Below are positions 2,541-63,630 of a stretch of DNA of 64,000 nt, piece by piece. Both the position numbers and the translations under genes were made by a program. The DNA comes from Stegostoma tigrinum (lineage: Eukaryota), in the NCBI RefSeq assembly GCF_030684315.1, contig NC_081361.1, forward strand, positions 15,427,861 through 15,491,860. The letters are read 5' to 3'. How positions within the stretch are numbered: position 1 is the stretch's first letter; every line of letters starts with the position of its first letter. Under the pieces are notes generated by a model. The model was not told where the DNA came from. It saw only the letters and a program-made list of their open reading frames with translations, and did not search any database.

Positions 2541-4133
2541 ACTGGGGCAAATTTGCCTCTCCTTTAACACAATGGTAGGAGATCTTTAGGAAGAGCACAA
2601 ACTAGAAACTTCCCTTAAACCCACACTTCTCCTTATGCTGCAATGAAATATGCGATATCAACCATCAGGCATCATCCTAATTTGGTCGACAAATATGTTA
2701 GAAAAAATGGACTTCAATCTCTGCATGAAGCACGGTCCCAAATGTGTGCAGGACTCTTTCATGCTCCTTGAAATTAAACACAGAGCTGGTGAAACAAAAC
2801 AATAAAATAAATCAGAAATGATTCAATCAATCTTACAGTATCTGTGAAGGTAAAACAGAGTTAGCATTTGAAATGACTGGGCTTGATGGGGGTGTGGTGA
2901 ATTATGGTAGAATACAATATTTGAACATAATTAATTGGGCTCAATGCCCGCCATTGAGCTCCATATTTATCTGCTTCCAGTGCTTTTTCACCATATCTAT
3001 ATAGAGCCTATTGATTACCTGGAAATGCAGGCCCATTGTTCTTCCTTGCTTTTTATCATGATCCACAGGAGGACAGCATAAGAAAACCTGGTTACTCACT
3101 GTCTCTCATATCTAGCCCTTCTTCTGACTTTCCCATGAATGTTTTGCAAAAGATCTCAGGTTGGTAAAGTTGTTGTCTTTAAGATGCCGCGTGCGTGTTG
3201 CCAGCCAGAAATAAATCAAAACATTCAGGCAACTAATCATACACCAAAAGCAATTGAAAAGAACAATGCAAAGGACTCCCACAATCCAAATTCATTTCGG
3301 GGATACATGCCAAATTTTAAATGGTGCTCACAATGTGTGATTTTGAGACTTTGCTGTTTGTTTAATCAAACAATATTGTACTTAGAGCCAGCTGCTTGTC
3401 AAAAGCATACAAATGTATAAGCAAAGCAAAGGTGCTATGTTGCCTGTAGGACATCTAACAAGCACAGTCATTCATGCAGTGTGTGCCCAGTGTTTGTTTA
3501 TGAGGGTGATCTAATTTAATTGCAACAATATCATCATTGTGAAGACATTCCATTCTTCCATTCTAACACCTGATAAATTAATAAGCATAAACAAGTCACA
3601 TCACAATTTTGGTCATATATTCAAAAAAAATTCAAATTTATGTTCGAGAATAGAATCTGTACAACTGAGGCTCTGAATGCAATAATGCAATACTGCTGTC
3701 TACTGCAGGAGTTCTATTTGGCAAAAGATAATGTTCTGCATTTGTTGCTTAAACTTTCATTGTCATTCCAATAGTTAGTAAAAAAGAAACTGAGAACTTT
3801 ATCCTTCCAAATGTAATGGCTGAAAATACATTGCACTGGCTTTCCAATTAATACAGTTCTAACAGCAGTCAGTCCAATGTTTGAGACAGAATGCCTGTGA
3901 ATCATACATATTTAAGACTTCGCACTTCGCTTTGATAATAGCTTTTGCTTTCTTATAGCTCTGCTTATATTGGTACTCTTCAAGATAATGTACTGCCAGT
4001 AGCAAAAGAGGGTCTGCTGTTTCTGAGGGACACCGATTACCCAACAATCTAACAAAACACGAGGGCTTTTTCAGCGGAATCTGCTGTCAGCTCTGCTTGA
4101 AAACAAAATGCTAAGCATAATGGTAGGGTCGCT

Positions 4134-6340: not shown

Positions 6341-8028
6341 ATCCAAGGGCATTTCCTTCTTTTCTCATCCACAACCACAAGACTGCATGTCTAGCTCCAA
6401 GAAAATATTTTGACCCGTACCCAATGACTACCTCCTTTTCCACGTCTTTCTTTCAACCAAGACCATTTGTTTACAACTCTTCTACATTTCGGTTCTGATT
6501 TATTGCCCACTGTTGCCAAAACTGAAAAAAAGTAATATTATCATTTCAAGACTTGATGGATAAAATACTTCCCAGTATTCCAAGATGATATAAACTACGG
6601 AGTATTCACTTCAATTTCTGTTGACTGATTTAACAGCTGGGACTTTTGCCAACCAAATGGTTTTAACAAAGGTTATTGACTTAAAATGGCTGCAGCCATC
6701 AGCTGACCCATCCAAGCTGCCCACATTTAATTAAGCCAATGAGAACGCAGCCTGAGCTGAAATTAACCACTTATGCAAAGCCAATGAGAGCAGTCAGTCA
6801 TTTCCTGGGATGTGTTTAAAAACCTTTAATCTCTGAATCGTTTGATACCTTGCTGAGAATCTTGACATGTTCGGGTTGAAATCGTTGCCTATAATTATGA
6901 AATCTGAACACAATTAAGTCAGTAGATAGAATGTAGAAATAAGCTATAATTACAGAAGTTGTCTCTGTGGAAAAGCAGAGATTTCTTTTTGATTGCAGGG
7001 CTGAAAAGGATGGGGAAGACTTTTTTTCTCTGCCTCTCAAGGAAAAAAAAATCTCAGTGACAACACTGACTAGAAAGAAACATCAAGAATGACAGTATTT
7101 GCTGCATAACTTAACCCACCACGTTTTCAGGTGAAACATTTGGACACTAAAATTACTCTAAACTGCATACTGTTTTATTACAACTCTGATGGGAAGAGTG
7201 CACTGAAAATCAAATGTCACGTCTTCACTAGTCAGATCAGAAGTGTAAATATCACATTTTCTCACTCAAATGGTCATTTCTTTTCTCCTTTACTTCTGTT
7301 AAGTAGAACAAAAAAGATGTAATTGTGTTCAATCAACTCCCAAATAATATGTTTATAACAGGAAGAAAAAACATTCTTCAAACAGATGGCAACTACTTAT
7401 TAACTCAGATTTTATACAAATTAAACAAAACCTTCTCCTTCTTTGCAATCACACACATTTTTTAATAAATAGACAAGAAAAAGACATGCATGAATCTACG
7501 TAGCTATCATGGCAGAAAAAGAAACGCACAATGTAAATTAGAAAAAGAACACAGCACTCTTGCAGATCAAGCATGAATTCAGATGACTAAAGTGATTGAC
7601 TTGTCACAGTTCCTTTGATTTCCTGATGTGGAGATCTAATTGCTGACAGTCGCACACTAATGGCAATTCTATAGAAGAGATTTTACATTCAGCCGAGCCA
7701 CTGATTGGCACACTGATGTATGAAACTTTGTGATTTTTTTTCAAATTACTGCATTGAGAGGTATAAAGTGTGCTGCTTTCCCTAAAATGTCTTGACTCCT
7801 ACTGACAGAGAGAAAGGCAGAAACAAAGAGAGAGAGAGAGACAAGACTGTCCTTGCAAATGTCTGCAGCAACTGCAAACCCTACTCCTCGCTTCTTGGCA
7901 TGTGCCTGCCTGAAAAAATACACTCAGACCTCATTCCAGAAGCTGTTGCTAGGCGATGGCGCCATAGACCCATTAAGGATTTTCACAATTGTTTGTTCAA
8001 CATCTGAAGCAATACAACGCTAACCCAT

Positions 8029-8145
8029 TCAGAGATAGTAAGAACTGCCAATGCTGGAGCCAGAGATAACAGTGTGGAGCTGGAGGAACACAGCAGGTCA
8101 GGCAGTGTCAGAGGAGCAGGAAAGCTGCCATTTTGGGTCGAGATG
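8029..8145 (-). mobile_element. Miniature PLE terminal fragment (family A-related), single arm
   Basis: CAGAGATAGTAAGAACTGCCAATGCTGGAG..GAACACAGCAGG matches the end of the 19558 element; the hammerhead core is truncated. Confidence 0.75.
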
Positions 8146-11100
8146 AAGGATCCGCACTGTTATCTCAGCTCTAGCCCATTCTTGTTTATAAAATTATTGG
8201 TGGACACTGCATTCAAAAATCACTGTTTTGTGAATAACAAACAGACCATAATCCCTGTTAACCTTTGACATTCAGTTCCGAGAAATCACATGATAAATCC
8301 ATTGAGACCTGTAATGTCCAAACATGCCTATTTTCCAATTCTCTTAATCAATCATTATATGCATTCTCAACACTTTTATCTTCCTTTTGCACTGCACACT
8401 CCCCCTTTTAAAATTGTATGTCTGTATTATTGCCCAAAGGTTATTTTTATTCAGTTTCTTAATGCTTGCTTTTTATTCATGTAAGAAAATCTTATGATGT
8501 ATCCTTACAGCTGCATTAAAAAAAACAGAATTTTAAGCAGAGGAAGGAATTTCTACATGTTAGAAAGGCCAATGAGCAAGGGTGAAAAGAGAAGAGTTAA
8601 TTCACCACCTTTTCCCTAATCTTATTGGTCCCATTTCTTCCATTGATAACATCTTGCGTGGAATTTCCCAACCCAATATGTGGCACAAAGAGGAATTGAT
8701 TGGTCAAATTGGCCCAAGGGAGACACTTCCACCTGTCTCTCTCCCTTTCCAGTGATGTGCCAAGTGGGAAGATTCTATGGTGGCTTTTGTGACACAGCTC
8801 ACTTACATTAAGCTGGCAACTTTCCCATGCAGTCAGTGGGTGGGAAAGGAGAGAAGGGTAAGGGGTGAGAGTAGGGAGAGTTACGGTACTGAAATACTAG
8901 CTATGAAGGCCTGCAGTTGAGTTTTTAAGTGCGTTGTCATGGCTTAACTAGGAGCAGTAAACAGTTAATCATTCCACACTGTCCAACAAATCATTACAAA
9001 AATGTGTGTCGACCAATTTGATAACTGAGATGATCAATTTGCCTGATTGACTGACCGCTATTCAGGACAAAAACAATTCACATTATTTTTATTAGAGTCT
9101 TTCAGAGGGTTCCAGGAAAAGAGAAACTGCCAGGTATAATCTTCAACTTCCCAGACAATTCCTTCAGAATCTGCTGCAATGGGGATTTTACAGGAGCCTG
9201 ATAAGGAACAGTTATCTGCAACAGTATGGCCAGCAGAAACTAACAATATTATTGAGATAAAATGGAATGGTGAGTTTGAGTCCTTCTCTATGTTTTTCCC
9301 TTTTTTGCATAGGGCAAAATGGATCATGAGTTTTTGTTTCCTCTCCCTTCTTTAACAAACATTTGATTTTTTGTGTTAAAATTATACTGGCAGCCTCCTA
9401 TGAATGTGTTTAATAACTGACTTTCATTGTTTAAAAAACAGCTGGATCTAACAAGGTTTAATTTTGGTGTCTTTGTTGTTCAGTTCTAATGTCAGCCAAG
9501 ATTGTAACAAAAATCAGAAACAAGTCTTTACCATTGCCTTACGTTGCAAAGGATCTGAAAAAGTACCCCTTCCTAGATTAATTTCCCATTGGAATCTTTC
9601 TCTTGGTGGTGTCAGAAAATAAAAAAAAATGCCACAGATATTTTGAGGATATACTTGCCATCCTATTCGAAGCTTGTCCATATATAAAATTCAAAACATC
9701 GGGAATATCTTCAGACACTAACATTCTCTCGAGCATCAGCAAATTCTGCCTACAGGCATTTAACACTTGTTCATGTCACTTGGCTGTAAGCATTAATTAA
9801 CAGAATCAGCTACTTCCACAACAAAGCCAGCAGCTTTCCAAATATCAGAGTGACCCAAATGATTTGTCCATGGTCTATTAGTACACAAAATCCACTGGGT
9901 AGCATCTCATTGGTTTGTCTCCAGGAATGAATATAAGGCTGAAGCAAAATCACGTTTGTAAGTTGGGTTAGTTCCCAACTGAAACTGTTTTAGAACCATA
10001 AATAGCAGAAAGCAAGTAGGGAGGAAGAATGCATGATGGGTAACATAATTATCATTTTTGTGGAATTTACACAATACATGACAAAGGAAGATGGCCAACA
10101 CCAAACATCAGCACAAAAGACAATGCTGATACCCTAGTGAGGGAATGTTGATCTCTTTTTTGGGTGTCACATTAAACTGGGACCTCATCTGCAATGCCAA
10201 GTGAATCCTGCAGAGATATGGATTAAAACGTGCGTTTATGAGACTATGAAATAATGGTACTGTTAGCATGGTATCAGACAGAAGGACAATCAAATAAATG
10301 GAGTAGGCATGATGTTTACCACGACACCTTTGTTGTAAAGGAAGAGTTTATAGAAAATCTTACCGCAAACTATGTCCAAGCCATTCGTGTAGGAAGAGAA
10401 ATCTCATTCAGCTGTGAAACACATTAAGCATGAGGAAAATGATCTCAGAACCCGGCAGCAGGTTAGACCAGCTGATGCAGAAAGAATTGAAGCTCAACAG
10501 GTAAAGAAAAATAACTCAGAACATTGATTGAGGAAGTGAATGTTCAACTTTCCAAAGAAGATGGAAAAACAAAACAAGCACAATGAGAGGCAGTGCTATT
10601 TTCTACGCTGACTCAATAACCACTTCTGCTTCCCCAGTCATTTAGAAACTTTGATGGTCCACAGCAAGGGAATTGGCCAGAGCCTCTGGAATCATCATTT
10701 CAAAAGGTACTGAACAGACAAGACAAAACTGTTCTATACTTGCCCACATGCTATTGGGATTTTAGCAGATAATGCCCTGGCAAGACTAGGAGTTGAGCAC
10801 AGCATCCTACAATGAGGTTCCGGGTTGGCGTCCTACGTATTTCAATCCAAAAATTATATCTGAACTGTAAGTATTCACCAACATGCTCTTACGTAGAATT
10901 AAACTTTCTTGGATAAAGGGGAAGTGTTGAAAAGAATACAGCACTTACAATCACCTACTGTCTCCTTGTGACATTACTGGCTCAGCAGTGGAAAGCCATT
11001 GCCAGAACAGGCACTCCTCTCTGCAGCCACTCAGTCATTGATGTAGTGATATTCCACGGCCCTTCTTTTCAGAGGTCTTCATGTGGTACTGTACAGAGAA

Positions 11101-11985: not shown

Positions 11986-12910
11986 ACAATTGAAGCTCTC
12001 CAAAAACTGACACTTGGGTGATTTTAGCTAAGGTTCAGCCCTATATGTTTACATCTATAATCTTGTGTCTATAAATAGTTTGTATCATCGATAAACTTCA
12101 AGACTTGTAGAATCATATGACCGAAGGTGCTCTTCAGCCCATTGAACCTGTACCACAAAAAAAATACCATCCCACTTTCCCAGAGTGCGCTCATAGCCTT
12201 GAAAGTTATAACATTTGCTCATGCAAGTTACATGGACTAACATATAAAAAAGGCACAAAGTATATTAGGTTCAAGCACAGAAGGCAGGAGCACAAGCCAG
12301 ACCAATGATTAATTAGCAGAAGGTTTATACTGATTAGTAAATCATTTACTTTAACCAAGGCTTAAAACAATTTTGTTTTTGATAGCATACTGTTAGGATG
12401 ATAGCATACTGTTGGGATGCTCAACAAGCTATCATCGGATGCTTTGTTCACAAATTGAAGATTTTGTATGATGGACTCATGAACCAGGCAGAGCAGTAGA
12501 AGCAGAATTGAGGTGCACTCTGGGGAGACTGCAAGGCTCCAGATCTATGATGTAGGCTGAGAGGTCGAGAACCACAGAGAAAAGTCCACTAAAATCACAG
12601 AAAGAGAAGGAAGCACCATTTCAGCCATTTTGAAATGCTCCCTTTGTGGCCAAAGATATTCATTAGAGAAAAAATACCCAACACTGGGACTCAAATGGTT
12701 TCTCTGTGGCAAGACAGGTAACTTTTTAGATCCCAACATCCATTGAAAGGAGGAGGCTGGAGCAATTTTACAACAGTTACAGAATACAGGAAATTGAAAA
12801 TGAAGAAACTGAAGCTGAAGTTTTCCAAGGCAATATAAAAAGACCCTGATAAGGGTGTCTGTTTGATAAGACTGGAAGTCAAACAATTTTGGACAGAAGG
12901 GCTGGAGTCA

Positions 12911-13008
12911 AAGATAACAAAGTGTGGAGCTGGATGAACACAGCAGGCCAAGCAGCATCTTAGGAGCACAAAAGCTGACGTTTCGGGCCTAGAGCCTTCA
13001 TCAGTAAA
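12911..13008 (-). mobile_element. Miniature PLE insertion (family A), single arm, 14-bp TSD
   Basis: TSD AAGGGCTGGAGTCA at 12897-12910 and 13009-13022; body nearly identical to 19593-19686. Confidence 0.9.
12977..13004 (-). ncRNA. Minimal hammerhead ribozyme motif
   Basis: Minus strand CTGATGA-A-GGCTCTAGGCCC-GAAA-CG-TC; core intact, stem II has one mismatch relative to other copies. Confidence 0.55.
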
Positions 13009-15700: not shown

Positions 15701-15924
15701 GGAGATAGTAGGAGCTGCAGATGCTGGAGAATCTGAGGTAACAAGGTATAAATCTGGATGAACACAGCAGGCCAAGCAGCATCAGAGGAGCAGGAAGGCT
15801 GATGTCTTGGGCCTAGACCCTTCTTCCGAAAGAAGAAGGGTCTTGGCCTAAAACGTCAGCCTTCCTGATCCTCTGATGCTGCTTGGCCTGTTGGGTTCAT
15901 CCAGCTCTATACATTGCTATCTCT
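15701..15924. mobile_element. Miniature palindromic PLE derivative (family A-related)
   Basis: Two inverted arms meeting near 15825; TSD GAATTG(G/A)AAGC at 15690-15700 and 15925-15935. Confidence 0.85.
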
Positions 15925-17279: not shown

Positions 17280-18050
17280 TCTTGACACCCTCAGGCGACC
17301 AGTTCAGACAGTGAGCAAACACACTATGAAGAGATGAATGATGAAGATGTGGCAGTAACACTGGATTTCCCATACTCAGCCCCCAGCTCAGATATTAAGA
17401 ATGTATGCATCTGACAGAAAAGGTGGGACAAAGGTGGCAAGAGTCTGATAGATTGCAGGCAAGACAGTGGGTACATATGGCATGGATGCTTCTTTCTCAG
17501 AGTGGCCTTACACCAGGGTTCCACCATAGAGGTTTCAGATGAAGATTTCAGTGGGGCGGCCTGCAGAGAAACACTGATGTATGTCGGCAATGGAATACTT
17601 GCTGCATTAGAAGCCTGCCAGAAAAGATGCAGTCAAGGTGACGGAAGTGGAAGCCATCCAACACCAGCTTGGTACATGGCTAAGAACAGAGAAAAAAGGC
17701 TTGCAGTGTATCACAGCAGTCTAGTAGTCCGTCCTACATTAGATTACTAGCATAGTTTAGGAACTTTTCTAGTCAATTGACAGTGATTTCGTGGATCTCA
17801 AACGCGCTGTTCTCTCTCAAAAACTCAATATTCATCCACCTACATCCATCCCTCTGCCAGGGCTCTCTGTTGGCTAGCTCAAGCTGCTGCTGCCCATGCT
17901 GAGATAAACACAGCCAGGCCTTCAATGCCAAGAAATGCTTGGGATTTGCGGCCTTTTCTACTGCAAGTCAATTGACTTCACTCATCCAAGCAACAGCCGA
18001 AGTCTGAGGCAGACTTAATGAAAACATGCATTAAAGGAATGTTGAAGAAT
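17280..18050 (+). mobile_element. Probable second (accessory) ORF region of a decayed Harbinger element
   Basis: Broken acidic/Ser-rich reading (EVSDEDFSGAACRETLMYVGNGILAALEA) lying tail-to-tail with the transposase remnant at 18380-18870; assignment is by position and recollection of similar shark repeats. Confidence 0.4.
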
Positions 18051-18379
18051 AATGATAATATATAACGCACTCATTTATAAAATTGGATTGGAATGTTCAT
18101 TTTATAGCAGATTTTGTTTTTACCTTGTGGCTAAGCAGTCACTGTGATCAACAATGACAGAGGGGAAATTGAGTTTGTGCTTATCAGTATCACTTACAGA
18201 TAGACAGCCAGGCAGAAATTGCCTAACTTGCCTCTTTCCTCTCTCTTCCAATTCCGTTTGTTGTCTGCTACACAACTGGGTGACAAACCTAGGACCCTCC
18301 AACAAAGCTGTTGTTTGTTTTGCAACATGAAACTGACCACTATAATTCCTGATACCTGCTCTGCAGAATGAGTCATGTC

Positions 18380-18870
18380 AATGTGGTCAACGTGTCTTCA
18401 GCATCACAAAACCTGCAATCCAACCAAATTCAAATGCTACCTTCACTTGCTTCTCTCTGGCAAAAGAAACTTAAATGTAGGCTGATAAGAGTGGCCTGAG
18501 TGACAATCCTTGCACAAGAGCAAATTACACATTGTATTAAACCCAACATCAACCTGCAGGGAACCAGGCTTTTGAATGTTTATTATCACAGAGTCACCTT
18601 CATTTCCACTGGTGGTGCTATCTTTACCTTGAGGCTGAAGTCATGGATGCATCAAATAGATTTCAGCGAGGATGTTTTTAGTGGAGAATGCAAGTCTCTC
18701 ACATTGAATCTCAAGGACATTCAGGCAGAAGAATTGTTCTCTGACAACCATGAGTGGATAAGATGTGCTGACCTCCCTTCTCCCCTCCTCCTGCAGCATG
18801 TTCTGGTCTGTAAAACCTCCTTTTCTTCTATCTTTGCTTTCTCTCAATGGGAATACCCACAAAGACACCC
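18380..18870 (-). pseudogene. Decayed PIF/Harbinger transposase, N-terminal half
   Basis: Minus-strand pieces in order: YPLMVVREQFFCLNVLEIQCERL, TKNILAEI, PVEMKVT, PGSLQ, AREKQVKVAFEFGWIAGF; these match HARBI1-like N-terminal motifs. Confidence 0.65.
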
Positions 18871-19658
18871 ATGGTTATGAATGACTCTTTCACTGAAGTC
18901 TTGAAGTCAACAAAAATCTTATCACCTGCCACACCACTCTTTTTTTGCAAAATAAAAGAAAACACCTAACAATTATACAATTGAGGGGGGAAATAAACAA
19001 ACAATGGCTAATCTGGAACTGGCCAATTGACCACTTAAGTAGTATTATGGGGGATATTCCTGTGACTTTACAAGCTGTCAGCTACGTGGTTTACAATAGG
19101 AGGAGACAGGAGCATCAAGATCCAAAATGGTATTGCTGACATCAAAAGAACATGCAATGCCCTGAACTGACTGCTCTATAAACTTCTATCAGATCTTTAC
19201 TGCCGATATGCAAACATCTGTACCAATATTAGCTGTGTTGCAATTTGTGCTGAATATCTGTTGTATGCCATGGATGCCATTTTAGAATTCCGCATTGAAT
19301 CACAACAACCAAAAAAAGAAGCGCTCATGAGTTCAATTTCTCACACAATTAGCATGAGAATTAGGAGTATTGGACATTAGTGCACAAGGACTTCAATCAT
19401 TGGACGATCGAGAAATGTGGAATAGATTCTAGGGATTTGAATTTGTTACTGTGGATGTAAAGAAAGAAAGAATCTGACAAACAGTTCATCATTTAACTTC
19501 CTTATGCCTCACCAGCTCTGCCAACAGCATCACAAAACAACAGGCTAATGGATGTTGCAGAGATAATGGGAACTGCAGATGCTGGAGATTCCAAGATAAT
19601 AAAATGTGAGGCTGGATGAACACAGCAGGCCAAGCAGCATCTCAGGAGCACAAAAGCT

Positions 19659-19686
19659 GACGTTTCGGGCCTAGACCCTTCATCAG
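19659..19686 (-). ncRNA. Minimal hammerhead ribozyme motif (left arm)
   Basis: Minus strand CTGATGA-A-GGGT CTAG GCCC-GAAA-CG-TC; ACGT palindrome in place of stem III; GUC triplet. Stem I is short. Confidence 0.7.
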
Positions 19687-19910
19687 AGAGGGGGATGGGG
19701 GGAGGGAACTGGAATAAATAGGGAGAGAGGGGGAGGCGGACCGAAGATGGAGAGTAAAGAAGATAGGTGGAGAGGGTGTAGGTGGGGAGGTAGGGAGGGG
19801 ATAGGTCAGTCCAGGGAAGACGGACAGGTCAAGGAGGTGGGATGAGGTTAGTAGGTAGCTGGGGGTGCGGCTTGGGGTGGGAGGAAGGGATGGGTGAGAG
19901 GAAGAACCGG

Positions 19911-20549
19911 TTAGGGAGGCAGAGACAGGTTGGACTGGTTTTGGGATGCAGTGGGTGGGGGGGAAGAGCTGGGCTGGTTGTGTGGTGCAGTGGGGGGAGG
20001 GGATGAACTGGGCTGGTTTAGGGATGCAGTAGGGGAAGGGGAGATTTTGAAACTGGTGAAGTCCACATTGATACCATATGGCTGCAGGGTTCCCAGGCGG
20101 AATATGAGTTGCTGTTCCTGCAACCTTCGGGTGGCATCATTGTGGCAGTGCAGGAGGCCCATGATGGACATGTCATCAAGAGAATGGGAGGGGGAGTGGA
20201 AATGGTTTGCGACTGGGAGGTGCAGTTGTTTGTTGCGAACTGAGCGGAGGTGTTCTGCAAAGCGGTCCCCAAGCCTCCGCTTGGTTTCCCCAATGTAGAG
20301 GAAGCCGCACCGGGTACAGTGGATGCAGTATACCACATTGGCAGATGTGCAGGTGAACCTCTGCTTAATGTGGAATATCATCTTGGGGCCTGGGATGGGG
20401 GTGAGGGAGGAGGGTGTGGGGACAAGTGTAGCATTTCCTGCGGTTGCAGGGGAAGGTGCCGGGTGTGGTGGGGTTGGAGGGCAGTGTGGAGCGAACAAGG
20501 GAGTCACGGAGAGAGTGGTCTCTCCGGAAAGCAGACAGGGGAGGGGATG
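19911..20549 (-). pseudogene. PLE ORF C-terminus (Cys linker plus GIY-YIG endonuclease), left arm
   Basis: VVYCIHCTRCGFLYIGETKRRLGDRFAEHLRSV..RLQEQQLIFRLGTLQPYGIN; 1-nt frameshift near 20410 separates it from PCNRRKCYTCPH. Confidence 0.9.
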
Positions 20550-20550
20550 C

Positions 20551-21357
20551 GTCTCCCGCATTTCCCGCGACACATCCCTCACACCCCGCCCCCGCCACAA
20601 CCGCCCCAAGAGGATCCCCCTCGTTCTCACACACCACCCTACCAACCTCCGGATAAAACGCATTATCCTCCGACACTTCCGCCATTTACAATCCGACCCC
20701 ACCACCCAAGACATTTTTCCATCCCCTCCCCTGTCTGCTTTCCGGAGAGACCACTCTCTCCGTGACTCCCTTGTTCGCTCCACACTGCCCTCCAACCCCA
20801 CCACACCCGGCACCTTCCCCTGCAACCGCAGGAAATGCTACACTTGTCCCCACACCTCCCCCCTCACCCCCATCCCAGGCCCCAAGATGACATTCCACAT
20901 TAAGCAGAGGTTCACCTGCACATCTGCCAATGTGGTATACTGCATCCACTGTACCCGGTGCGGCTTCCTCTACATTGGGGAAACCAAGCAGAGGCTTGGG
21001 GACCGCTTTGCAGAACACCTCCGCTCAGTTCGCAACAAACAACTGCACCTCCCAGTCGCAAACCATTTCCACTCCCCCTCCCATTCTCTTGATGACATGT
21101 CCATCATGGGCCTCCTGCACTGCCACAATGATGCCACCTGAAGGTTGCAGGAACAGCAACTCATATTCCGCCTGGGAACCCTGCAGCCATATGGTATCAA
21201 TGTGGACTTCACCAGTTTCAAAATCTCCCCTTCCCCTACTGCATCCCTAAACCAGCCCAGTTCATCCCCTCCCCCCACTGCACCACACAACCAGCCCAGC
21301 TCTTCCCCCCCACCCACTGCATCCCAAAACCAGTCCAACCTGTCTCTGCCTCCCTAA
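20551..21357 (+). pseudogene. PLE ORF C-terminus (end of RT region, Cys linker, GIY-YIG), right arm
   Basis: RIPLVLTHHP..AFRRDHSLRDSLVRS..PCNRRKCYTC..VVYCIHCTRCGFLYIGETKQRLGDRFAEH; premature TGA at 21139-21141 where the left arm has CGA. Confidence 0.9.
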
Positions 21358-21581
21358 CCGGTTCTTCCTCTCACCCATCCCTTCCTCCCACCCCAAGCCG
21401 CACCCCCAGCTACCTACTAACCTCATCCCACCTCCTTGACCTGTCCGTCTTCCCTGGACTAACCTATCCCCTCCCTACCTCCCCACCTACACCCTCTCCA
21501 CCTATCTTCTTTACTCTCCATCTTCGGTCCGCCTCCCCCTCTCTCCCTATTTATTCCAGTTCCCTCCCCCCATCCCCCTCT

Positions 21582-21609
21582 CTGATGAAGGGTGTAGGCC
21601 CGAAACGTC
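21582..21609 (+). ncRNA. Minimal hammerhead ribozyme motif (right arm)
   Basis: CTGATGA-A-GGGT GTAG GCCC-GAAA-CG-TC. Confidence 0.7.
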
Positions 21610-22869
21610 AGCTTTTGTGCTCCTGAGATGCTGCTTGGCCTGCTGTGTTCATCCAGCCTCACATTTTATTATCCAGGCTAATGGATGTTGTTTGTTTACT
21701 TGATGCAATGTTTCTCAATTGTCATCAGCAGTACTCACAGAAATTGTAATAAGTGAATGTGAAGTGTGTTAACACGATGTGCAAAACTAATAACTTTAAC
21801 CTCAGATTTTGAGAGTCAAGACACCTTGGCACAAATCACTTCACACTGACTCCCTATTATCAACTGATTGAATATTGTCCAAATTACAGAATTCAAGGGA
21901 GAAGTAGCATTTCACAATTATCTCCTATTTCTCAATTAGCACTGGTAAATGAGAGTGCAACAGTGTTACAAGACTGCAAAAGTGGGAGAGATTGTTACGT
22001 GTGGAATTTGACTAAGTTCATCAGTAAGTGGGACAGTTTCAGTGATAGGGACCATCAGTGGAAAGTGCTGAACGAGTTAAAGAGGTGCAGGGCAGCCGAT
22101 TGGATTTGTAGCAGAAGAAAACTCTATGATCAGAACCTAAATACGACAATAACATTGATATTATAAGAGGATGGAATTTGGAGCAACTCTGAACAGGCGA
22201 TAAATGAGAATGAAAAAAGAATGAGAAGTCAATCCATAAGTGGGGTTTTGTTTCAGTGTTCAGAAATCAATTCCCACCTAAAGCTTATTAAAACTGGAAG
22301 AATGTAATGTCTTTGACAACTGACCTTACACTTCATTTCAATCTCTGAAAACACCCTCTACCAGTAGGTGGAACTGTCCTCATTACCACAGACTATGGTC
22401 TTCACAGCGAGGAGGGAGGATGACTTTTCTTCCAGTTTTTAATTTTTCTCCTTCCTCCTACTCAGGAAATAATAATGACCCAAATCTATTCAACCAGTGC
22501 ACATTCAGTAGGTATGTTGAATATTTCAGAAGTTGATGTTGTTTGTAAGTCACCAATGGAACGTGCTAACCTTGCCATTGCTTCAAGATCTGTAACTGAT
22601 CTATTATGAACTTCAGTGTCAAAAAGTGTTGCCTGTTCATTTGTTTATTGCTTTAGGAAAATAATTAGCTACTACAGCAGTAATATATATGTTCAATGCA
22701 ACACAATCTGTTGCTTAAGATGGTGGATCTGAAAGAGTTTGTTTAATTTGAGTTATATTTCCCTCAATATGATGATTTCTTCGGGTAGAGAATATGTCAG
22801 TTGAGTATGTGGTCCCAACTGAGACCAATTGACATTTCTGGCTTCCTATGGTATTATGTAATTACCCAT

Positions 22870-23283
22870 AACACAACCCAGTCCATCATGCAAGCTAATT
22901 TTCCATCAAGACTCCATTTATACTTCTCGCTGCCTCAGGAAGGCAGTCAACACCATCAAAGACCCCTCCCAACTCGTTTATAATCTCTTCTAACCTCCAC
23001 TTCTGTCAAGCATAAGATACAAAAGTTTAAACACATGTACCAACCCATTCGAGAGTACCTTCTTATGCGCTGTTGCTAAACTTTGGAATTGACATCTCAA
23101 ATTTCAAACCTAATGTTGATCTTGCTTTTTGTGCATTTTTTTTGCAGTTGTAACTTTGTATTCCTCGCTCTGTTCAATCAACCTATGATCTTTGCATGGT
23201 ATGATCTGCCTGCACTGCACACAAAACAAAATGTTTCACTGTACCTAGGTACATGAGACAATAATAACAAATCAAATCAAATT
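22870..23283 (+). mobile_element. Rex1/Babar LINE 3' end
   Basis: RCLRKAVNTIKDPSQ..RYKSLNTCTNPFESTF matches the Rex1 C-terminal motif; (CAAAT)n tail. Confidence 0.8.
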
Positions 23284-23351
23284 ACTGATCAATGTAATTT
23301 TTAACCTATGGTGATCACGCAGTAAACTGCCTTCTATTAATCCTCCCTAGG

Positions 23352-23533
23352 GTAAGTAAGGACTGCAGATGCTGAAAAACAGAGTCAATAAACATGAAGC
23401 TTGGCAAACGCTACGGGTCAGACGGCATCAGTGGAGCAGAAAAGTCAATGTTTTGGACTGAAATCTGACAAAAGGTTTCTTTCCTACTCCTCTAATGTTG
23501 TCTGACCTACTGTGTTTGTCCAGTTCCACTTTG
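23352..23533. mobile_element. Older miniature palindromic PLE derivative
   Basis: GGACTGCAGATGCTG tail, then GGTCAGACGGCATCAGTGGAGCAGAAAAG mirrored by CTTTCCTACTCCTCTAATGTTGTCTGACC. Confidence 0.6.
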
Positions 23534-26354: not shown

Positions 26355-26453
26355 TTGAAGAAGGGTCTCAGCCCGAAATGTCAGCCTCACTGCTCCTCTG
26401 ATGCTGTTTGGCCTGCTGCGTTCATCGAGCTCTACACCTTGTCATCTTAGAAT
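26355..26453 (+). mobile_element. Miniature PLE terminal fragment, single arm
   Basis: TGAAGAAGGGTCTCAGCCCGAAATGTCAGC..GATGCTGTTTGGCCTGCTGCGTTCATC; decayed hammerhead core. Confidence 0.75.
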
Positions 26454-28549
26454 CTTTTGTTTGGTCAAGCAACCACGGATACAAAATTGGACATTCTAAC
26501 TTCACTCACAACATGAGAAATCACCTGCAACTAAAAAACTGGCCAAAATTGCTACAGAGATCAACAGAAACAAAAGGTTACAAAGATTCAAAGGGATGCA
26601 GTTACAATCAGCCCAAGAGTTATTTTTTGCAAAGTGTTGATCAGACATTCAGGCATTTTGACTGCCTGAGTACATGCACTTTATACTGCCCAAAATGGCA
26701 ATTGTGAAGGCACAACCCCATTGGATGACTAAAACCCAGCTAATGACCCCATTGGCCAAAGGCCACAAAACATTGTGGAGGATGAGGAGACATAAGAATG
26801 ATGCCTCGAGAAGTCACTTTCTCAGTGAAGACTCACAAGGATGAATTGTGGCAGAAGGTCATGTAGTGACCCAAGAAGACACAGGAGAAGATTTGCCCTG
26901 ACCTGTGAGACCCACCTCTGTAGATAAAAGCCAACCATATATCGGACAGGAAGGAAATTCAACGGTCCAACTCAAGCATTTAGATTATTCCACATAATAT
27001 CCTTTCACAGACAGATTGAACGAGATAGAGAGTAAATATTGTGGGAATTTGAGAAATGCTTGTACAGTGTATTAATAAGGAATGTTTTATTAATAAAATC
27101 AGCTTGCACCACGGACTGAATTCTGTGTCCCTTTGTCCTCCTCGCTAACAAGAATACTTGGGTAAAGTGTTGTTAACCAATGGATGACCAAAATACAGAC
27201 ATCTAAGCAGTAACTGCCAACTTTGTACAAACTTACCATTTCAAATGATCTGAAGTTTTACTTCAATTAAACACTTTCTGACTGGATTCTCACCTGATAG
27301 TTGCATTAACTGAAAATTAACTTATCTGTTGAGAGATATGCATTTTACTGTAGACCAAAATAATACATATTTTTAAAGAATCTAAAAAATGATAACCATT
27401 TTAGATGCAAAAATATTAGATTATCTTGAACATTTGTGTCTGCAGCACCATTAACCTAGCTTCTGATTTAAGATGTAAACAAATTATTTTACAAAACTAT
27501 GCCTCAGTAATTGAAACATTTTGTTGTCTTGCAGTATTGTAGCTCTGGAGTAAGTTGGTGTCATACTGATTAACTCCTCTCAAAAAGTAAATTAGAGATG
27601 GTTTTACATTTAGATGCAAACAGAATTGAAGGTTTTAAAAAGGTGCTATGGATTTAGAATTCAATTGTCTACCTAATACAATGATTGTATCAGGTTTTGA
27701 AAATATCATCTGGAATGCAACCGCTGTAATGGAATCAGAAAATTAGATATGGCCATGTGAGCAAACATATTTACCATACCTTTGTATTTTTGCTGTGTTT
27801 GATGAACTATGTTCCTACATTACAATTAAGTTCATAGTCAGTTAGATGGCATTTCAACCCCTTTGAAACTGAACTCCCTCTGGCAATCTTTTTAAGACTC
27901 TTGATGTCACATTATTCCAATGGATGTCTGCATTTCCTGTATCAGGTAGCAGTTTTGCTAACAGGAGCTGTATTCATGGTGAAAGTCAAAACTTTGTTCT
28001 AATTGTTCTGACAATTGTTGCAAAAATGGCCGAATATTCAATTACACTTGCAGTCACTACCACAAAGGGATAGCCCAATCCAAAAATGTATATTGGATTG
28101 GTCTGTTGTAACCAAAATGGCTTTATGCTTCATTATTGATTCTGAGAAAACATTGCTGAAGTGAATCACTCAGTCTCTGCACACCATGTTTTTATGTTTT
28201 CCTACCATAGTTACAAATTAAAGTAGACTTTGTTTGCAAGAAATTGACCATTTGGCTTAATTTTTTTTAAGCCTTTATTTGTCCTAATTCCATGCCCTTG
28301 TCTCGTTCCCATATCTCCTTATTCCTCTCTCATTCAAACACTAATCTCACCTAATCCTTAAATATTAATGTTCTTTTCAAACAAAGCTTTCTCTCTACCG
28401 TACCTTGGACCTACGCAATGTCATTCTAGGCTCCTTAATCACTGGGAAGAAGAATGATTTAAATGACATTTTACTAATGCCTCTTTAAACATCTATTAAA
28501 TTATCATTTAACCTACACTGCACTAATTAAATCACGACCAATTTCTCAA

Positions 28550-30521: not shown

Positions 30522-30705
30522 TAACAAGGTGTAGACCTGGATGAACGCTGCAGGCCAAGCAGCAGAGGAGTAGGAAGGCTGATGTTTTGGGCCTAGGTCC
30601 AAAACGTCAGCCTTCCTGCTCCTCTGATGCTCCTTGGCCTGCTGTGTTCATCCAGCTCTACACCTTGTCATCTCAGATTCTCCAGCGTCTGCAGTTCTTA
30701 CTATC
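30522..30705. mobile_element. Miniature palindromic PLE derivative
   Basis: Arms meet at GGCCTAGGTCC (~30595); TSD ACTTG(A/T)CAA(A/T)GAAA at 30508-30521 and 30706-30719; tail on the right arm only. Confidence 0.85.
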
Positions 30706-37450: not shown

Positions 37451-37644
37451 CAGAGATAATGGGAACTGCAGATGCTGGAGAATCCAAGATAACAAAGTAT
37501 GAAGCTGGATGAACACAGCAGGTCAAGCAGCATCTCAGGAGCACAAAAGCAGACGTTTCGGCCCTAGACCCTTCGAACGTCAGCTTTTGTGCTCCCGAGA
37601 TGCTGCTTGGCCTGCTGTGTTCATCTAGCTCCACACTTTGTAAT
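37451..37644. mobile_element. Miniature palindromic PLE derivative (family A), young
   Basis: Left arm close to 19558-19681, right arm inverted; TSD CTTT(A/G)TTTTTAAACT at 37436-37450 and 37645-37659. Confidence 0.9.
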
Positions 37645-38189
37645 CTTTGTTTTTAAACTGATGTGTTTGATGCTGTAGCATTAAGCCAACTAGGAAATAA
37701 ATAAAGAAGTAGACTGCAATAACAGCACAGGCTGTAATCATTGTGTTCACTGGTATTGACTCAGACAGGGTAATGGACAACAACTGCCTGTGCAGTAACC
37801 ATTCCACTCCATTTCCATGGATCTTGGCATCCAACATGTACCAGTCTCACTGCTTAATCATGGCACATCTCCGATCCACGTAAGGAACATTTCTACACTT
37901 TAATGCTGCACTTTGGAAAACATTGGCACCTTTCATTGAAATTATTCTGATCTAAGTTGGCTGTGCAGAAGCCCTGGTTCATCCTGAACATGATTATCAA
38001 GGACCATTGTTGCAGAGGTAGTTCAGAAACTGCCTTTTGTTGAACGGAGTTTGTCAAAAGAATTTTGTTAGTGACTTCCCATTCTTCATATCACTTGATC
38101 CAGGGGATAATGACAGGTGGATGATATTCAGGAAGGTTGATCCCCAAGGGATGACAAAATTGAAAGGAGGTAGTAGGGGGATTGAACAT

Positions 38190-40203: not shown

Positions 40204-40374
40204 ACTGTGTGAAGCAGGCCAAGCAGCATTAGAGGAGCAGGAAAGTTGATGTTTCAGGTCAAGACCCTTCTTCTCGACCCAAAACATCAACTTTCCTGCT
40301 CGGTCTGCTGTGTTCATCCAGCTTCACATAGCGTTATCTCAGATTATCCAGCATTGGCAGTTCCTACTATCTCT
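40204..40374. mobile_element. Miniature palindromic PLE derivative
   Basis: GAGCAGGAAAGTTGATGTTT mirrored by AAACATCAACTTTCCTGCTC; direct repeat GCATTTAGTT at 40191-40200 and 40375-40384. Confidence 0.8.
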
Positions 40375-44696: not shown

Positions 44697-45184
44697 GATA
44701 GAGTTATACAGCAGAGAAACAGACCCTTTGGTCCAACCACTCCATGGCGACTGTAATCCCAAATTAAACCAGTCCCACCTATCTGCGCTTGTTCAATATC
44801 CCTCCAAACATTTCTTATTCTTGTATTTATTTAAATGTGTTTAAAGCATTATAACCGTATCCACATCCACCACTTCCTCTGAAAGTTCATTCCACAGACG
44901 AACCACCCTCTGTCTAAAAAAGATTGCCCCTACTGTCTTTTTAAAATCTTTCTCCTTTCACTTTAAAAATATGCCCTCTACTCTTGAAATCCCCCACCCT
45001 AGGAAAAAGACCATTGCTTTTGACCTTATCTGTACCCCTCATGATTTTATAATCGTCTAAAAGGTCACTCCTCCACCTCCTACAGTCCAGTGAAAAAGTC
45101 CTAACCCTACCCAGCCTCTCCCCATAACTCAAACCTTCCATTCCTGGCAACACCCTCATAAATCTCTTCTGAATCGTCTCCAAG
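44697..45184 (-). mobile_element. CR1 LINE 3' fragment
   Basis: LETIQKRFMRVLPGMEGLSYGERLGR..KSRGHIFKVKGERF. Confidence 0.9.
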
Positions 45185-48477: not shown

Positions 48478-49630
48478 AAAATGTTGACATCTGAGGGACT
48501 TTAGCAAGGCCTTTGACAAGATTCCATGTGGTAGATTGGTCAGTAAAGTTAGACCCAGGGATAGCTTGCCAATTGGATACAAAATTGACATGATGTTAGG
48601 AGACGGAGAGTGGAAGTAGAGAGTTATTTCTCAGAGTGGAGGTCTGTGACCAGTGATGTTTCATTGGGATTGGTACTGGGTCCAACAATTTAGATAACAA
48701 TATAGGAAGCATGGTTAGAAAGTTTGTAGATGACACTAAGATTGGTGGTGTAGTGGACAGTGAGGAAGGTTATTTAAGAGTATAACGGGATCTTGATTAA
48801 CTGGGCCAGTGGATCGAGGAGTGCAAAATGGAGTTTAATTTAGATAAATTCAAGGTGTTGTATTTTGGTAAGACAGACAAGAACAGGACTTATACATATA
48901 AAATGGTAGGGCCCTAGGTAGAGTTGTTGAGCAGAGAGACCAAGCCATTGAGGTATATTCATTCTTGAAAGTGGCATCATAAATCGATAGAGTGGTGAAG
49001 AAAGCTTTTGGCATGCTTGCCTTCACTACCCAGACCACTGAGTACTGAAGTTGGGAAGTCATGTTGCATTTGTACAGGATGTTGGTGAAGCCACTTTTGG
49101 GGTGTTGGGTACAGTTCTGGCTGTCCTGCTGTAGGAAGGATATTATTAAATTGGACAGGGTGCAGAAAAGACTTACAAGGATGTTCATGGCACTGGAAGG
49201 TTTGAGTTATAAGGAGAGGCTGGATAGGCTGGGATGTTTTTCACTGAAGCGTAGGAGGGTGAGGGGTGACCTCATAAAAGGTTTATGAAATCATGAAGGG
49301 GATAACTAAGGTGAATAGGAAAGGTCTTTTCCAGAGAGTAAAGAGTTGAAACTAGAAAGCATAATTTTATGGGGAAAGGAGAAAAGATTTAAAAGGGACC
49401 TGAGGACCATCTTTTTCACACAGAGGATGGCTCATATGGGGTATGAAGTGGTGGGTGTAGGTACAGCTACAATATTTAAAAGACATTTGGACAGATACAC
49501 GAGTAGAAAATGTTTAGAGGGATATGGGCCAAGCACAGGCAAATGGGAATAGTTTACTTTGGGAAATTTGGTCAGCATGGATGAGTAGGACTAAATGGTC
49601 TCTTTCTGTGCTGTATGGCTCTATGACTAT
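48478..49630 (+). mobile_element. CR1 LINE RT and 3' end
   Basis: DFSKAFDKIP, KFVDDTKIGGVVDSEEG, RKDIIKLDRVQKRLTRM; CTATGACTATG tail. Confidence 0.9.
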
Positions 49631-57150: not shown

Positions 57151-57395
57151 GGAACAAAAAAAAAGAAAATAACCATTCAAGGTATAAAAACAAAGTTGCT
57201 GGAAAAGCTCAGCAGATCTGGCAACATCTGTGGAGGAGAAAACAGAGTTAACGATTGGGTCCGGCGACCCTTCCTCAGAACTGATGGTGGCTAGGAAAAT
57301 GTCAGTTTATCCACAGAAAATAGGGAGGTGGGTGGGGTAGGGAGTAAACAATAGGATAGAGCCTGAAGAGAGAGCAAGACAGTTGGACAGACAAA

Positions 57396-57796
57396 AGATA
57401 ATAAAATGTGAGGCTGGATGAACACAGCAGGCCCAGCAGCATCTCAGGAGCACAAAAGCTGATGTTTCGAGCCTAGACCCTTCATCAGAGAGGGGGATGG
57501 GGTGAGGGTTCTGGAATAAATAGGGAGAGGGGGGAGGCGGACCGAAGATGGAGAGAAAAGAAGATAGGTGGAGAGGAGAGTATAGGTGGGGAGGTAGGGA
57601 GGGGTTAGATCAGTCCAGGGAAGACGGACAGGTCAAGGAGGTGGGATAAGGTTAGTAGGTGGGAGATGGAGGTGCGGCTTGGAGTGGGAGGAAGGGATGG
57701 GTGAGAGGGAGAACAGGTTAGGGAGGCAGAGACAGGTTGGGCTGGTTTTGGGATGCAGTGGGTGGAGGGGAAGAGCTGGGCTGGTTGTGTGGTGCA
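57396..57796 (-). mobile_element. Family A PLE 3' fragment nested in the family B left arm
   Basis: Close match to 19594-19989; hammerhead motif at 57461-57488 (minus strand CTGATGAAGGGTCTAGGCTCGAAACATC). Confidence 0.9.
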
Positions 57797-58045: not shown

Positions 58046-58082
<37 letters not shown>

Positions 58083-58168
58083 AGGCTCTATCTTATCATT
58101 TACTCCCTACCCCACCCACCTCCCTATTTTCTGCATATAAACTGACATTTTCCCAGCCACCATCAGTT

Positions 58169-58198
58169 CTGAGGAAGGGTCACTGGACCCGAAACGTT
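58169..58198 (+). ncRNA. Minimal hammerhead ribozyme motif (family B)
   Basis: AGTT-CTGAGGA-A-GGGTC ACTG GACCC-GAAA-CG-TT-AACT: 5-bp stem II, 4-bp stem I, AACGTT palindrome. Confidence 0.75.
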
Positions 58199-59929
58199 AA
58201 CTCTATTTTCTCCTCCAAAGATGCTGCCAGACCTGCTGAGCTTTTCCAGCAACTTTGTTTTTGTTCCTGATTTACAGCATCTGCAGTTCTTTTGGTTTTC
58301 ATTCAAGGTATAAGTTGCCTATAAAACAAAAATGGTTTTTAGTTAATATCGTTATTTTGTCAATTGATGTATAAATGATTTAAAATTTAACTTGTTGATG
58401 TGTCCTTCTTACAGCTCTTTGGAAGTTACAGATATCAAAAAAGGTGACAATGGAGAGACTTATAATTTTTCCACTTCAGGTGATCAGGTGTCAGTGCTTA
58501 CATGAAAGTTTCTTTTCGCTGACATATATATAGCATCAGGCTTGATTTTAAAACTGTGTGTTTTGTTTAGTGATTTAGTAAGTCCTCAGACAGCTGTCAT
58601 TTGTTTGGACAAGTTTAAACCCACAGCAGAATCAGTGGTTTTGAGATTAAATGATGGAAAATTTTGTGGTAAACCAGGAAACACTATTGAGTTTAAGTCT
58701 AGTGAAGATATAAAGATGTATCAGATTCACTTTGCAGTCTTAAAAATGTGGGGATATTGACCATAAACCTGAAAATAGCAAAACAATCCTTTCTATATCA
58801 CAACTAACACAACAAATGAAAGGGATGGGCAAATATTGTAGCTTCCAGAAATATGGGAGACATAAACTTCACAGATTTACATGCGTTCGGAACAAATTGC
58901 TCAACATGGATTGTGAAATAGTACTTTACTTCTTGAGCTAGACAGTAAAGGTGTCTGCTATGTCATGTCAACTCACTGGAGATCTCCCTTGAATTGTGAA
59001 CTTGACAGAATCTGGCCTGTAGTTAAGTGAATGAATTTCAATATTAAGCTCCTCTTGAGACCGACAATCCTGTGATTTTAACCATACTAACTGTGTTGCC
59101 ACTGAAAGTAGGTTTACTCTATTAAGTTGCACGCTATGGTTATTGCATGGCATTGCTTATGTGAAATTATCACCAACATTTAAATTCAAAGCAGAATTAG
59201 GCTAATTGACCCCTTCAGCCTGCTACACAGTTCAATAAGATCAAAGCAGGCGTGATTACTCTACTCTCCCGCACATTCCTGATAACCTTGCACCTTGCTG
59301 CTTCTCAAGATTTTATTGAAATCTACCTTTAAAAAATTCAAAGACTCTTTCCATTGTCTTTTGAGGAACTGCCTTCCAAGACTTCCTGTGCGATATTGTT
59401 GCATTAGCATTTTCAAACCAATAACAGGGTCATTCGAACCACATCATCAATACCGCCTTGTTGAAATATTTGACATATATTGAAATGGATATGGGGGAAA
59501 AGTGCCAAGAAGAAAGCAAACATAAATGTGAATACAGAAAAGAAGAAAAAGAGAGGGGAGGAATCAAAAGGCAAAGAGAGGGAGATAAAGGAGATCAATT
59601 TTTAATGTTACTGGCTAAGGGCTGAAACTGTCCAACATGTCAATTCTGTGAATTATTAATTTCATACATTTAGGTTATGAGTAATTCTACTCAGTGAACA
59701 ATTGCATTTCAATAACCAATGCAGAATGGAATAACTTCAAAAATGCTGAGTTTCCTAGCCAGCTAATTTAAAGTCACTTTTACGCCTCTTATGATCAAAC
59801 GGGAAAGATCTTCACATCGATATTGTGAAAGTTGACAAAGGAAGTTGTCCTTACTTGCATCATATGGAACCTGCTTTTAGCTCTGGGCTCCTGTATCTAC
59901 TGGTATACCTAAATTATTTCAATCATTGT

Positions 59930-63182: not shown

Positions 63183-63630
63183 AGAGTCATAGAGTAATAA
63201 AACATGGAAACAGACCCTTCGGTCCAACTTGCCGACCAGATATGCTAAATTAATCTAGTCACATTTGCCAGCATTTGACCCATATCTTTCTAAACCTTTC
63301 CTGCTCATGTACCCATCAAGATGCCTTTTAAATGTTGTATTTGTGCCAGCTTCCACCACTTCCTCTGGCAGCTCTTTCAATACACACACCAGCCTTTGCG
63401 TGAAAAAGTTGCCCCTTAGGTCCCTTTGAAATCATTTCCCTCTCACTTTAAACCTGTGCCCTCTAGACTTGGACTCCCCTGCCCTAAGGAAAGACCATGG
63501 CTATTCACTCTATCCATGTCCCTCATGACTTTATAAATTTCAATAAGGTCACCCTCCAGCCTCTGGCATTCCAGGGAAAATAGCTCCAGTCTATTCAGCC
63601 TCACCTTATAGCTCAAACCCTCCAACCTTG
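63183..63630 (-). mobile_element. CR1 LINE 3' fragment
   Basis: EGLSYKVRLNRLELFSLECQRLEGDLIEIYKVMR. Confidence 0.9.

Follow-up and report, generated by a model that had tools for sequence, protein, structure and literature searches.

How Penelope-like elements (PLEs) insert as two inverted copies of themselves with a short tail on one end only is still called an open question in PMC8557442, and the only full-length in vitro study that we found, PMC11167929, leaves inverted copies unaddressed and does not discuss target site duplications (TSDs). The same question is raised by a palindromic insertion in the carpet shark Stegostoma tigrinum, lying in a stretch of 64,000 nt (GCF_030684315.1, NC_081361.1:15,427,861-15,491,860, forward strand), hereafter the window, whose positions serve as coordinates throughout. 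Because its family supplies thousands of near-identical, TSD-bounded events, the mechanistic question becomes directly testable. The answer that we favor, with a probability of roughly 0.65, is asymmetric twin priming: a dimer of the element's reverse transcriptase-endonuclease (RT-EN) protein would prime two cDNAs, mostly on one RNA, and these would then be end-joined.

The locus itself is ordinary, one dead copy among tens of thousands with a layout already published for PLEs. It is almost certainly a dead, 5'-truncated, two-armed insertion, joined head-to-head with its 3' ends outward, of a very abundant endonuclease-bearing (EN+) PLE of the Neptune or Nematis type. Its parts are as follows.

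19541..19557, + strand: left copy of the TSD, exactly matching the right copy.
19558..19594, - strand: 37-nt tail, on the left arm only (the right arm is without it), marking the distal RT start site (+37).
19595..20549, - strand: left arm, a 5'-truncated antisense copy with EN region, 3' untranslated region and pseudo-long terminal repeat (pLTR), from the alignment.
19659..19686, - strand: minimal hammerhead core of the left arm, with helix II intact and a helix I of 2 bp, from a motif match.
20550..20719, + strand: the supposed spacer, which by continuity of the open reading frame (ORF) belongs to the longer right arm and extends it in the 5' direction (end of the RT thumb and linker).
20720..21673, + strand: right arm, a 5'-truncated sense copy without a tail, its 3' end at the proximal RT start site (0), from the alignment.
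20821..20847, + strand: CX4CxxC zinc-finger-like linker of Neptune/Nematis type, its three cysteines invariant in 58 aligned relatives.
20932..21357, + strand: GIY-YIG endonuclease region with CCHH motif, up to the natural stop and broken by a premature stop (ORF, Pfam, alignment).
21226..21342, + strand: three 39-bp tandem units forming the low-complexity C-terminus of the ORF, mirrored in the left arm (repeat search).
21582..21609, + strand: minimal hammerhead core of the right arm, from a motif match; predicted cut at 21609/21610.
21674..21690, + strand: right copy of the TSD, exactly matching the left copy.

Alignment of the left arm (19595-20549, -) with the right arm (20720-21673, +) gave 99.27% identity across 955 columns, the differences being 6 substitutions plus one inserted nucleotide near 20414, in agreement with an earlier note on this DNA that had described arms of ~955 bp with about half a dozen differences. 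The perfect 17-bp TSD that it had drawn around the whole insertion was also exact (19541-19557 = 21674-21690), with only two copies in the 64 kb, and the presence of one outer and no inner TSD upholds its claim that both arms were made during a single integration event. Two parts of the description had to be revised. The 170-bp spacer placed between the arms is no true spacer: 20550-20719 is 5' element sequence of the right arm, its frame runs on into the right-arm ORF and it matches the reference copy (L036) from position 2559, the arms being joined directly, head-to-head, at 20549/20550 with a 1-nt overlap at 20549. Nor is the palindrome symmetric, given the 37-nt tail at 19558-19594 on the left arm only. 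The hammerhead motif reported for each arm was recovered at 21582-21609 (+) and 19686-19659 (-), both reading outward because each arm includes the 3' end of the element. A GIY-YIG region with its CCHH motif is likewise present, but its Pfam matches in the window copy are weak and under the curated cut-off (E 0.00097 and 0.00077), and a query of 768 aa from the ORF against PDB sequences gave no match at E<=0.01. Only the EN end is retained in this copy, and neither arm is functional, because the RT is gone, the left-arm frame is shifted by the insertion near 20414 and the right arm meets a premature stop at 21139-21141. The structure is also no rarity: the layout is published, and a position-ordered sample from one contig held 63 complete insertions, 35 two-armed and 28 one-armed (8 more were cut by the locus edge).

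A 27-base motif from the arm end had 48,742 + 49,187 exact matches (~98,000) in the 3.2-Gb genome, against 0 for the control. The search for full-length RT+EN copies suggested in the earlier note was successful: in a set of 16 loci chosen by their 5' body, open frames of ~1,075-1,110 aa were found in L180, L181, L182 (two units each), L183, L190, L191 and L195. These frames carry YIDD and YIGET, with the EN C-terminal to the RT in a single ORF; the Pfam matches of a full-length frame (RVT_1, E 2.9e-5; GIY-YIG, E 0.004) are both under the curated cut-offs. The unit is ~3.7 kb long; in its head-to-tail tandems, the next unit opens with the tail sequence, which there forms the start of the body. 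The tail accordingly runs into the 5' body in L036, L102 and L180, and in L102 and L180 the pLTR comes from partial tandems.

The closest named protein relatives are those of carpet sharks (Chiloscyllium, Rhincodon, Stegostoma). Aligning one full-length frame with 57 relatives (58 sequences) showed C968, R986, H990, D465-K466-G467 and the CX4CxxC linker cysteines to be invariant and C971, H1006, H1012, E1035 and N1051 to be kept in at least 90%, with YIDD also present. A CCHH motif and conserved R/H/E/N residues in the EN, together with DKG in the RT, are defining features of PLEs (PMC8557442), where a CX2-5CxxC linker upstream of GIY-YIG is ascribed to Neptune and Nematis, and Penelope and Poseidon are without it. 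By these definitions, its domains and motifs place the family among the PLEs with a C-terminal EN, in either Neptune or Nematis; the names of the homologues carry no clade label. The PLE identity first proposed is thus borne out by the full-length copies, the linker and the layout. The Cys-rich linker that had pointed to Neptune does exclude Penelope and Poseidon, but it is shared by Neptune and Nematis. Naiad and Chlamys (N-terminal EN) and Hydra (no CCHH) were also ruled out, the EN here being C-terminal and the CCHH motif present.

Exactly one arm was tailed in all 104 two-armed copies inspected, namely, 21/21 long copies read by hand, 35/35 from the position-ordered sample, 40/40 short copies and 8/8 complete copies from the 5'-body set. 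No set was selected by tail. The long copies were drawn from the 40 best-scored of 1,358 candidates, with L062 omitted as a duplicate of L043; L102 was counted in both the ordered and the 5'-body sets; and L034, L036 and L102, which the automatic caller had split wrongly, were read by hand. Most tailed ends fell between +33 and +37 and most untailed ends between -4 and +3; one of the 40 short copies extends by chance to +13. One-armed copies used both ends about equally (15 tailed, 13 untailed), which argues that both are primary starts, and an independent choice for each arm would yield ~25% tail-tail copies. Genome-wide, one size class of short palindromes gave 6,530 core-core, 6,416 tail-core (3,233 + 3,183) and 153 tail-tail matches, the last count also admitting older subfamilies. 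Among the first 50 core-core places, the exact tail motif stood on one side in 44 and on both sides in 1, and the remaining 5 had a mutated one-sided tail. In one copy (L049:598-2222), the second arm consists of the tail alone within a 14-bp TSD, which is the expected stalled product under twin priming. Separately, L181:1268-9083 and L182:1186-9081 are palindromes of ~7.8 kb in which both arms are full-length and have open ORFs; each has a single tail and a TSD of 13-14 bp.

The arms of a pair also resemble each other far more than they resemble other arms. At 42 shared variant sites, the arms of the 21 long pairs disagreed in 40 of 565 calls (7%); discordance with shuffled partners was 39.8 +/- 4.2%, and 0 of 5,000 shuffles were as low as observed. 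At one site in 73 other, short pairs, 11 were discordant against 45.5% expected. Private variants in the 21 long pairs were mostly confined to one arm (176, versus 29 in both), and little conversion between arms therefore seems to have occurred. CpG transitions accounted for only 19 of the 176 private one-arm changes, a weak CpG excess to which RT errors or low methylation may contribute.

The 5' ends of the arms tell a similar story. They were sorted into class A (immediately ahead of the hammerhead core), class B (past the predicted cut) and others, and the two arms fell into the same class in 28 of 35 pairs, where ~12 were expected from the class totals. Four of the 11 off-hotspot pairs ended within 12 nt of each other, an agreement reached in at most 2 of 20,000 shuffles. 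The genome-wide size bins held 6,530 AA, 2,699 BB (10 of the first 50 not pure B) and 2,877 mixed copies, while ~7,500-8,400 mixed copies would be expected if ends were independent. In L064:839-1562, both arms bear an identical large internal deletion that fuses reference positions ~220 and 3439 through a short sequence common to both sides, and no splice signals were seen there. As a side observation, in L186:2133-4892 and L192:1941-3446 part of the 5' body stands ahead of a short class-A 3' unit in the same orientation, as if RT had run off the end of a short RNA and then jumped to another.

A TSD was found in 93 of 98 two-armed copies, with a median of 15 nt and 86 of the 93 at 13-17 nt; in one-armed copies the median was 12 (n=27 of 41; p 4e-12 against two-armed copies), a set from which two spurious calls had been removed and in which three rows are mis-split pieces. 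This contrast would fit both overhangs serving as direct primers in two-armed copies and one of them being trimmed in one-armed copies. No strong base preference was seen in 86 oriented TSDs, and biases beside the TSD come from edge calling. At the centre, 44 of 88 junctions overlapped by 1-10 nt and 21 were blunt, with small palindromes such as AGCT at 7 of 50. Pairing between primer and RNA averaged 1.5-1.6 nt at both ends versus 0.4-0.5 shuffled, a weak hint only, given that this null covers one side of the edge ambiguity and a fair null would be about double. Templated element pieces of 27-90 nt lie between the arms in L034:5677-5703, L037:5343-5432 and L046:5592-5624, and L092:2097-2246 has ~150 bp of unrelated sequence between arms whose ends agree within 4 nt.

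Under asymmetric twin priming, the RT-EN protein, probably as a dimer, would nick both target strands ~14-17 nt apart, as the TSDs suggest, and leave 3' overhangs, a polarity that the geometry of a TSD around outward-facing 3' ends requires. Each 3' end would prime its own cDNA, one cDNA starting at the proximal RNA site (core end, 0) and its partner at a distal site (tail end) that lies ~35 nt to the 3' side, and if these two roles are exclusive, every two-armed copy would receive exactly one tail. Both cDNAs would usually read one RNA, the distal cDNA displacing the first, with a minority of events drawing their arms from two RNAs or a template switch. The cDNA 3' ends would stop or be trimmed independently and be end-joined head-to-head with 0-10 nt of overlap, after which second strands would be filled in. 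At the present locus, the tail-primed cDNA would have stopped 171 nt before the other, leaving the apparent spacer. Short palindromes would probably stem from use of the same start sites where they recur in the 5' pLTR, 95-130 nt into a full-length RNA. The N-terminal residues 1-165 of the family's protein could be modelled as an antiparallel homodimer via residues 65-106 with a score of 0.43 (best of 3 controls, 0.00), a prediction in which one of three runs scored 0, contact agreement was at least 0% and pLDDT at least 36; of solved eukaryotic pairs, 17 of 29 reach the score mark, as against 0 of 30 single chains, and reaching it may reflect memory.

Several points weigh against this reading. 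All of its support is genomic and correlative: four patterns are observed, from which the dimer, strand displacement, priming order and end-joining are inferred. In bulk in vitro reactions of anole Poseidon, no start-site difference between strands was seen (PMC11167929). Six pairs with discordant haplotypes (L050, L052, L053, L109, L117, L121) are each still one-tailed, so crowding on a single RNA is not the whole cause of the rule, and the single-site estimate puts discordant events at up to about one third. In most long pairs the two 5' ends lie far apart, and the mixed bin of 2,877 copies is not empty. A shared haplotype would also be expected if one source locus dominates a cell, and equal 5' ends could come partly from symmetric trimming of the palindrome centre. 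One of the 6 substitutions between the window arms sits on a family-segregating site. The 153 tail-tail matches also exist, only 2 of the 6 inspected (L134-L139) having a TSD; many of them may be nested or aberrant events.

The discordant pairs invite a scheme in which each protomer has an RNA of its own and one RNA is primed at each nick; the protein complex alone would then set the tail asymmetry, and the likeness of the arms would come from one dominant source locus per cell or later conversion between arms. Arms of different subfamilies in several copies that still have one tail, independent 5' ends in most long copies and the dimer model all suit it, but the agreement of 5' end classes far above chance, with the mixed bin at about one third of expectation, does not, nor do the shared ends of 4/11 off-hotspot pairs or the scarcity of private variants common to both arms. 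We consider this scheme unlikely, if still to be reckoned with. The tail type usually linked to the other allele was seen on 3 of 6 G-allele tailed arms in discordant pairs and in 1 of 14 typed concordant pairs, a mismatch that hints at template switching on numbers too few to count.

Shared haplotypes, short central overlaps and junctions at small palindromes would be accounted for by fold-back, in which one cDNA or antisense RNA copies itself and the resulting hairpin is opened with the tail left on one end; self-priming of an antisense RNA was proposed in PMC3846280, and endonuclease resolution leaving a tail was suggested in PMC8557442. A copied arm cannot exceed its template, so fold-back would put the tail on the 5'-longer arm. 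In 96 pairs (L036 and L049 apart), the tailed arm was 5'-shorter by >20 nt in 19, the present locus among them, and 5'-longer in 16; in the other 61 the arms differed by 20 nt or less. The tail is thus on the shorter arm in 19 of the 35 asymmetric pairs. Arms of different subfamilies and the tail-only arm of L049 would need extra steps as well, and we regard fold-back as improbable. A second insertion into the same site, or a rearrangement that afterwards converted a tandem copy into an inverted one, might be imagined in a family with ~98,000 matches and nested copies, but one outer TSD without inner ones, a one-tail rule, shared haplotypes and a TSD range narrower in two-armed than in one-armed copies are not what they would produce, and we give them very little weight. 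Exactly one tail, a shared template, a tail on either arm and a fixed stagger disfavor the published self-priming idea, and the same regularities give sharp predictions for the existing assay.

In 143 instances of the hammerhead motif, helix I paired at position 1 in 134, at position 2 in 132 and at position 3 in 15; helix II was kept in 15 aligned copies, with one pair changed on both sides in 2 of them, and the right-arm helix II of the window copy has a private C-to-G change at 21594. A search of Rfam at E<=1 over 18000-23500 gave no match. The 5' ends of arms (n=98) numbered 29 at reference 3586-3600, 1 at 3601-3619 and 16 at 3620-3632, reference 3620 being window position 21610, the first base past the predicted cut. 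This pile-up suggests, with a slight lean over RT stalling, that cleaved RNAs served as templates. Stalling stays in contention because the minimum-energy fold has a hairpin ending at 3621, nearly the same place as the predicted cut, and because an AGCT palindrome at the cut blurs the ends by two bases. For comparison, PMC11167929 found no RNA ends at the ribozyme cut of anole Poseidon. Several full-length copies begin at 3563-3634 in the upstream pLTR. These positions suggest class A as the point where transcription starts, and an origin of the short palindromes by initiation within the 5' pLTR; such palindromes need no non-autonomous master of their own, because full-length copies begin in the same region, although one may exist. 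The class-A edge (window 21576-21590) is a pyrimidine run that we take to resemble a TCT-type initiator. A stem was predicted between the tail and the post-hammerhead region, in which no pair had changes on both sides and the fold was no better than shuffles (z 0.48). We hold at even odds the broader proposition that obligate asymmetric twin priming explains the inverted pLTR, one-sided tail, ~15-nt TSD and mini-palindromes alike, with the 5'-end edge as an in vivo footprint of the hammerhead.

The age of the insertion and its reality were addressed with contigs from 4 of 17 listed runs over 18700-19630, that is, the left junction. The earlier note had suggested looking for the empty site in related sharks, and in two runs of a related organism contigs track the flank as far as the final base of the TSD (19557) before passing into other sequence, which we read as an empty site. 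The flank differs from this relative at 63-64 of 858 positions (7.3%) and the arms from each other at 6 of 954 (0.63%), which would place the insertion at no more than ~9% of the age of the split. Dating it at 7e-10 per generation (PMC10587355) would give ~4-5 million generations, a figure that we distrust on account of RT errors and a generation time that is not established. Two Stegostoma samples each gave one contig running from the flank through 20 nt of tail; both were produced by a single study, and the assembly itself may have been built from them. A common empty allele should have broken these contigs at 19557 (rare variants are dropped from contigs), and none was seen in the two samples at the left junction. 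The insertion described as young is thus young relative to the split from the relative, and no empty allele showed in two samples of its own species. That the palindrome is a fold-back chimeric long read is scarcely credible. The read check is confined to the left junction; yet the arms differ at 7 positions and in length, the flanks are unmirrored and bear a direct TSD, the left flank is single-copy in the assembly (one match, with no second haplotype or empty allele seen there), the contigs of both samples cross that flank into the tail, and like structures number in thousands in the genome. L043 (C178) and L062 (C107) cover the same region, present on two small contigs that run in opposite directions, through either a duplication or redundancy in the assembly.

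Other repeats in the window include four older short palindromes of the family (15702-15905, 30537-30705, 37453-37647 and 40213-40373; ~80-93% to the reference), each tailed on one arm, and one-armed remnants near 8032-8143, 12901-13004, 26356-26455, 57395-57796 and 58168-58289. A further inverted pair, 57180-57382 / 58065-58268 (204 nt, 90%), flanks the family copy at 57395-57796. A different old repeat family is present in three copies ~70% alike (44698-45183, 49151-49624, 63189-63624). For annotators, palindromes of the PLE family could be mistaken for miniature inverted-repeat transposable elements or assembly errors.

Compared with published systems, the locus is closest to the canonical EN+ PLE complex insertion. 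The typical Penelope structure of PMC3846280 is an inverted pLTR with a TSD, in which one inverted pLTR bears a 31-bp tail; PMC8557442 gives the same layout, with the tail often at one end only, and PMC8969392 repeats it. The head-to-head inverted copy, the single enclosing TSD, the one-end tail (37 nt here, 30-40 bp published) and a pLTR from partial tandems are common to both; unlike the canonical insertion, the present one has both arms truncated and the RT gone. The tail, optional or 'often' one-sided in PMC3846280 and PMC8557442, is near-strictly exactly one by our count, and TSDs are 13-17 nt in the two-armed shark copies against 8-10 bp in published rotifer examples. With the Neptune and Nematis clades of PMC8557442, the family has in common a single ORF, an RT followed by a C-terminal GIY-YIG with CCHH, and a CX2-5CxxC motif upstream; microsatellite targeting is not evident in the shark TSDs inspected. 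We found no literature on shark Neptune elements and no twin-priming or both-strand model of PLE inversion in the literature searched, a coverage outside which most subscription papers fall.

Minimal PLE hammerheads have a CUGAnGA/GAAA core, an extra nucleotide before helix II and G10.1-C11.1, and pairs 100-700 bp apart on opposite strands are already reported (PMC4209133). The shark motif has in common with them the core, the pre-helix-II nucleotide, G10.1-C11.1, a palindromic 15.2-16.2 and the lack of helix III, and differs in a helix I of 2 bp rather than 4-5 bp, as described for D. virilis in the same paper. At this locus the two hammerheads lie on opposite strands, making a cis dimer in one transcript impossible.

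The anole Poseidon element PAc belongs to a different clade, without the linker finger, and its ORF starts in the hammerhead, while the first Met of the long shark ORF lies 3' of the tail. In vitro, both strands were nicked and extended, two internal RNA start sites bounded the tail, and the protein was predicted to dimerise via a long head-to-tail helix (PMC11167929). Two adjacent internal RT start sites bounding a tail, a hammerhead 60-100 nt upstream of them and a predicted helical dimer are thus common to PAc and the shark family.

L1 twin priming offers the other parallel. There, a single RNA is the template for priming from both nicked strands, and microhomology joins the resulting cDNAs; the second primer lands internally, giving an inversion without duplication. 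In the shark element, by contrast, both primers would be confined to fixed 3'-end sites, with the same region copied twice.

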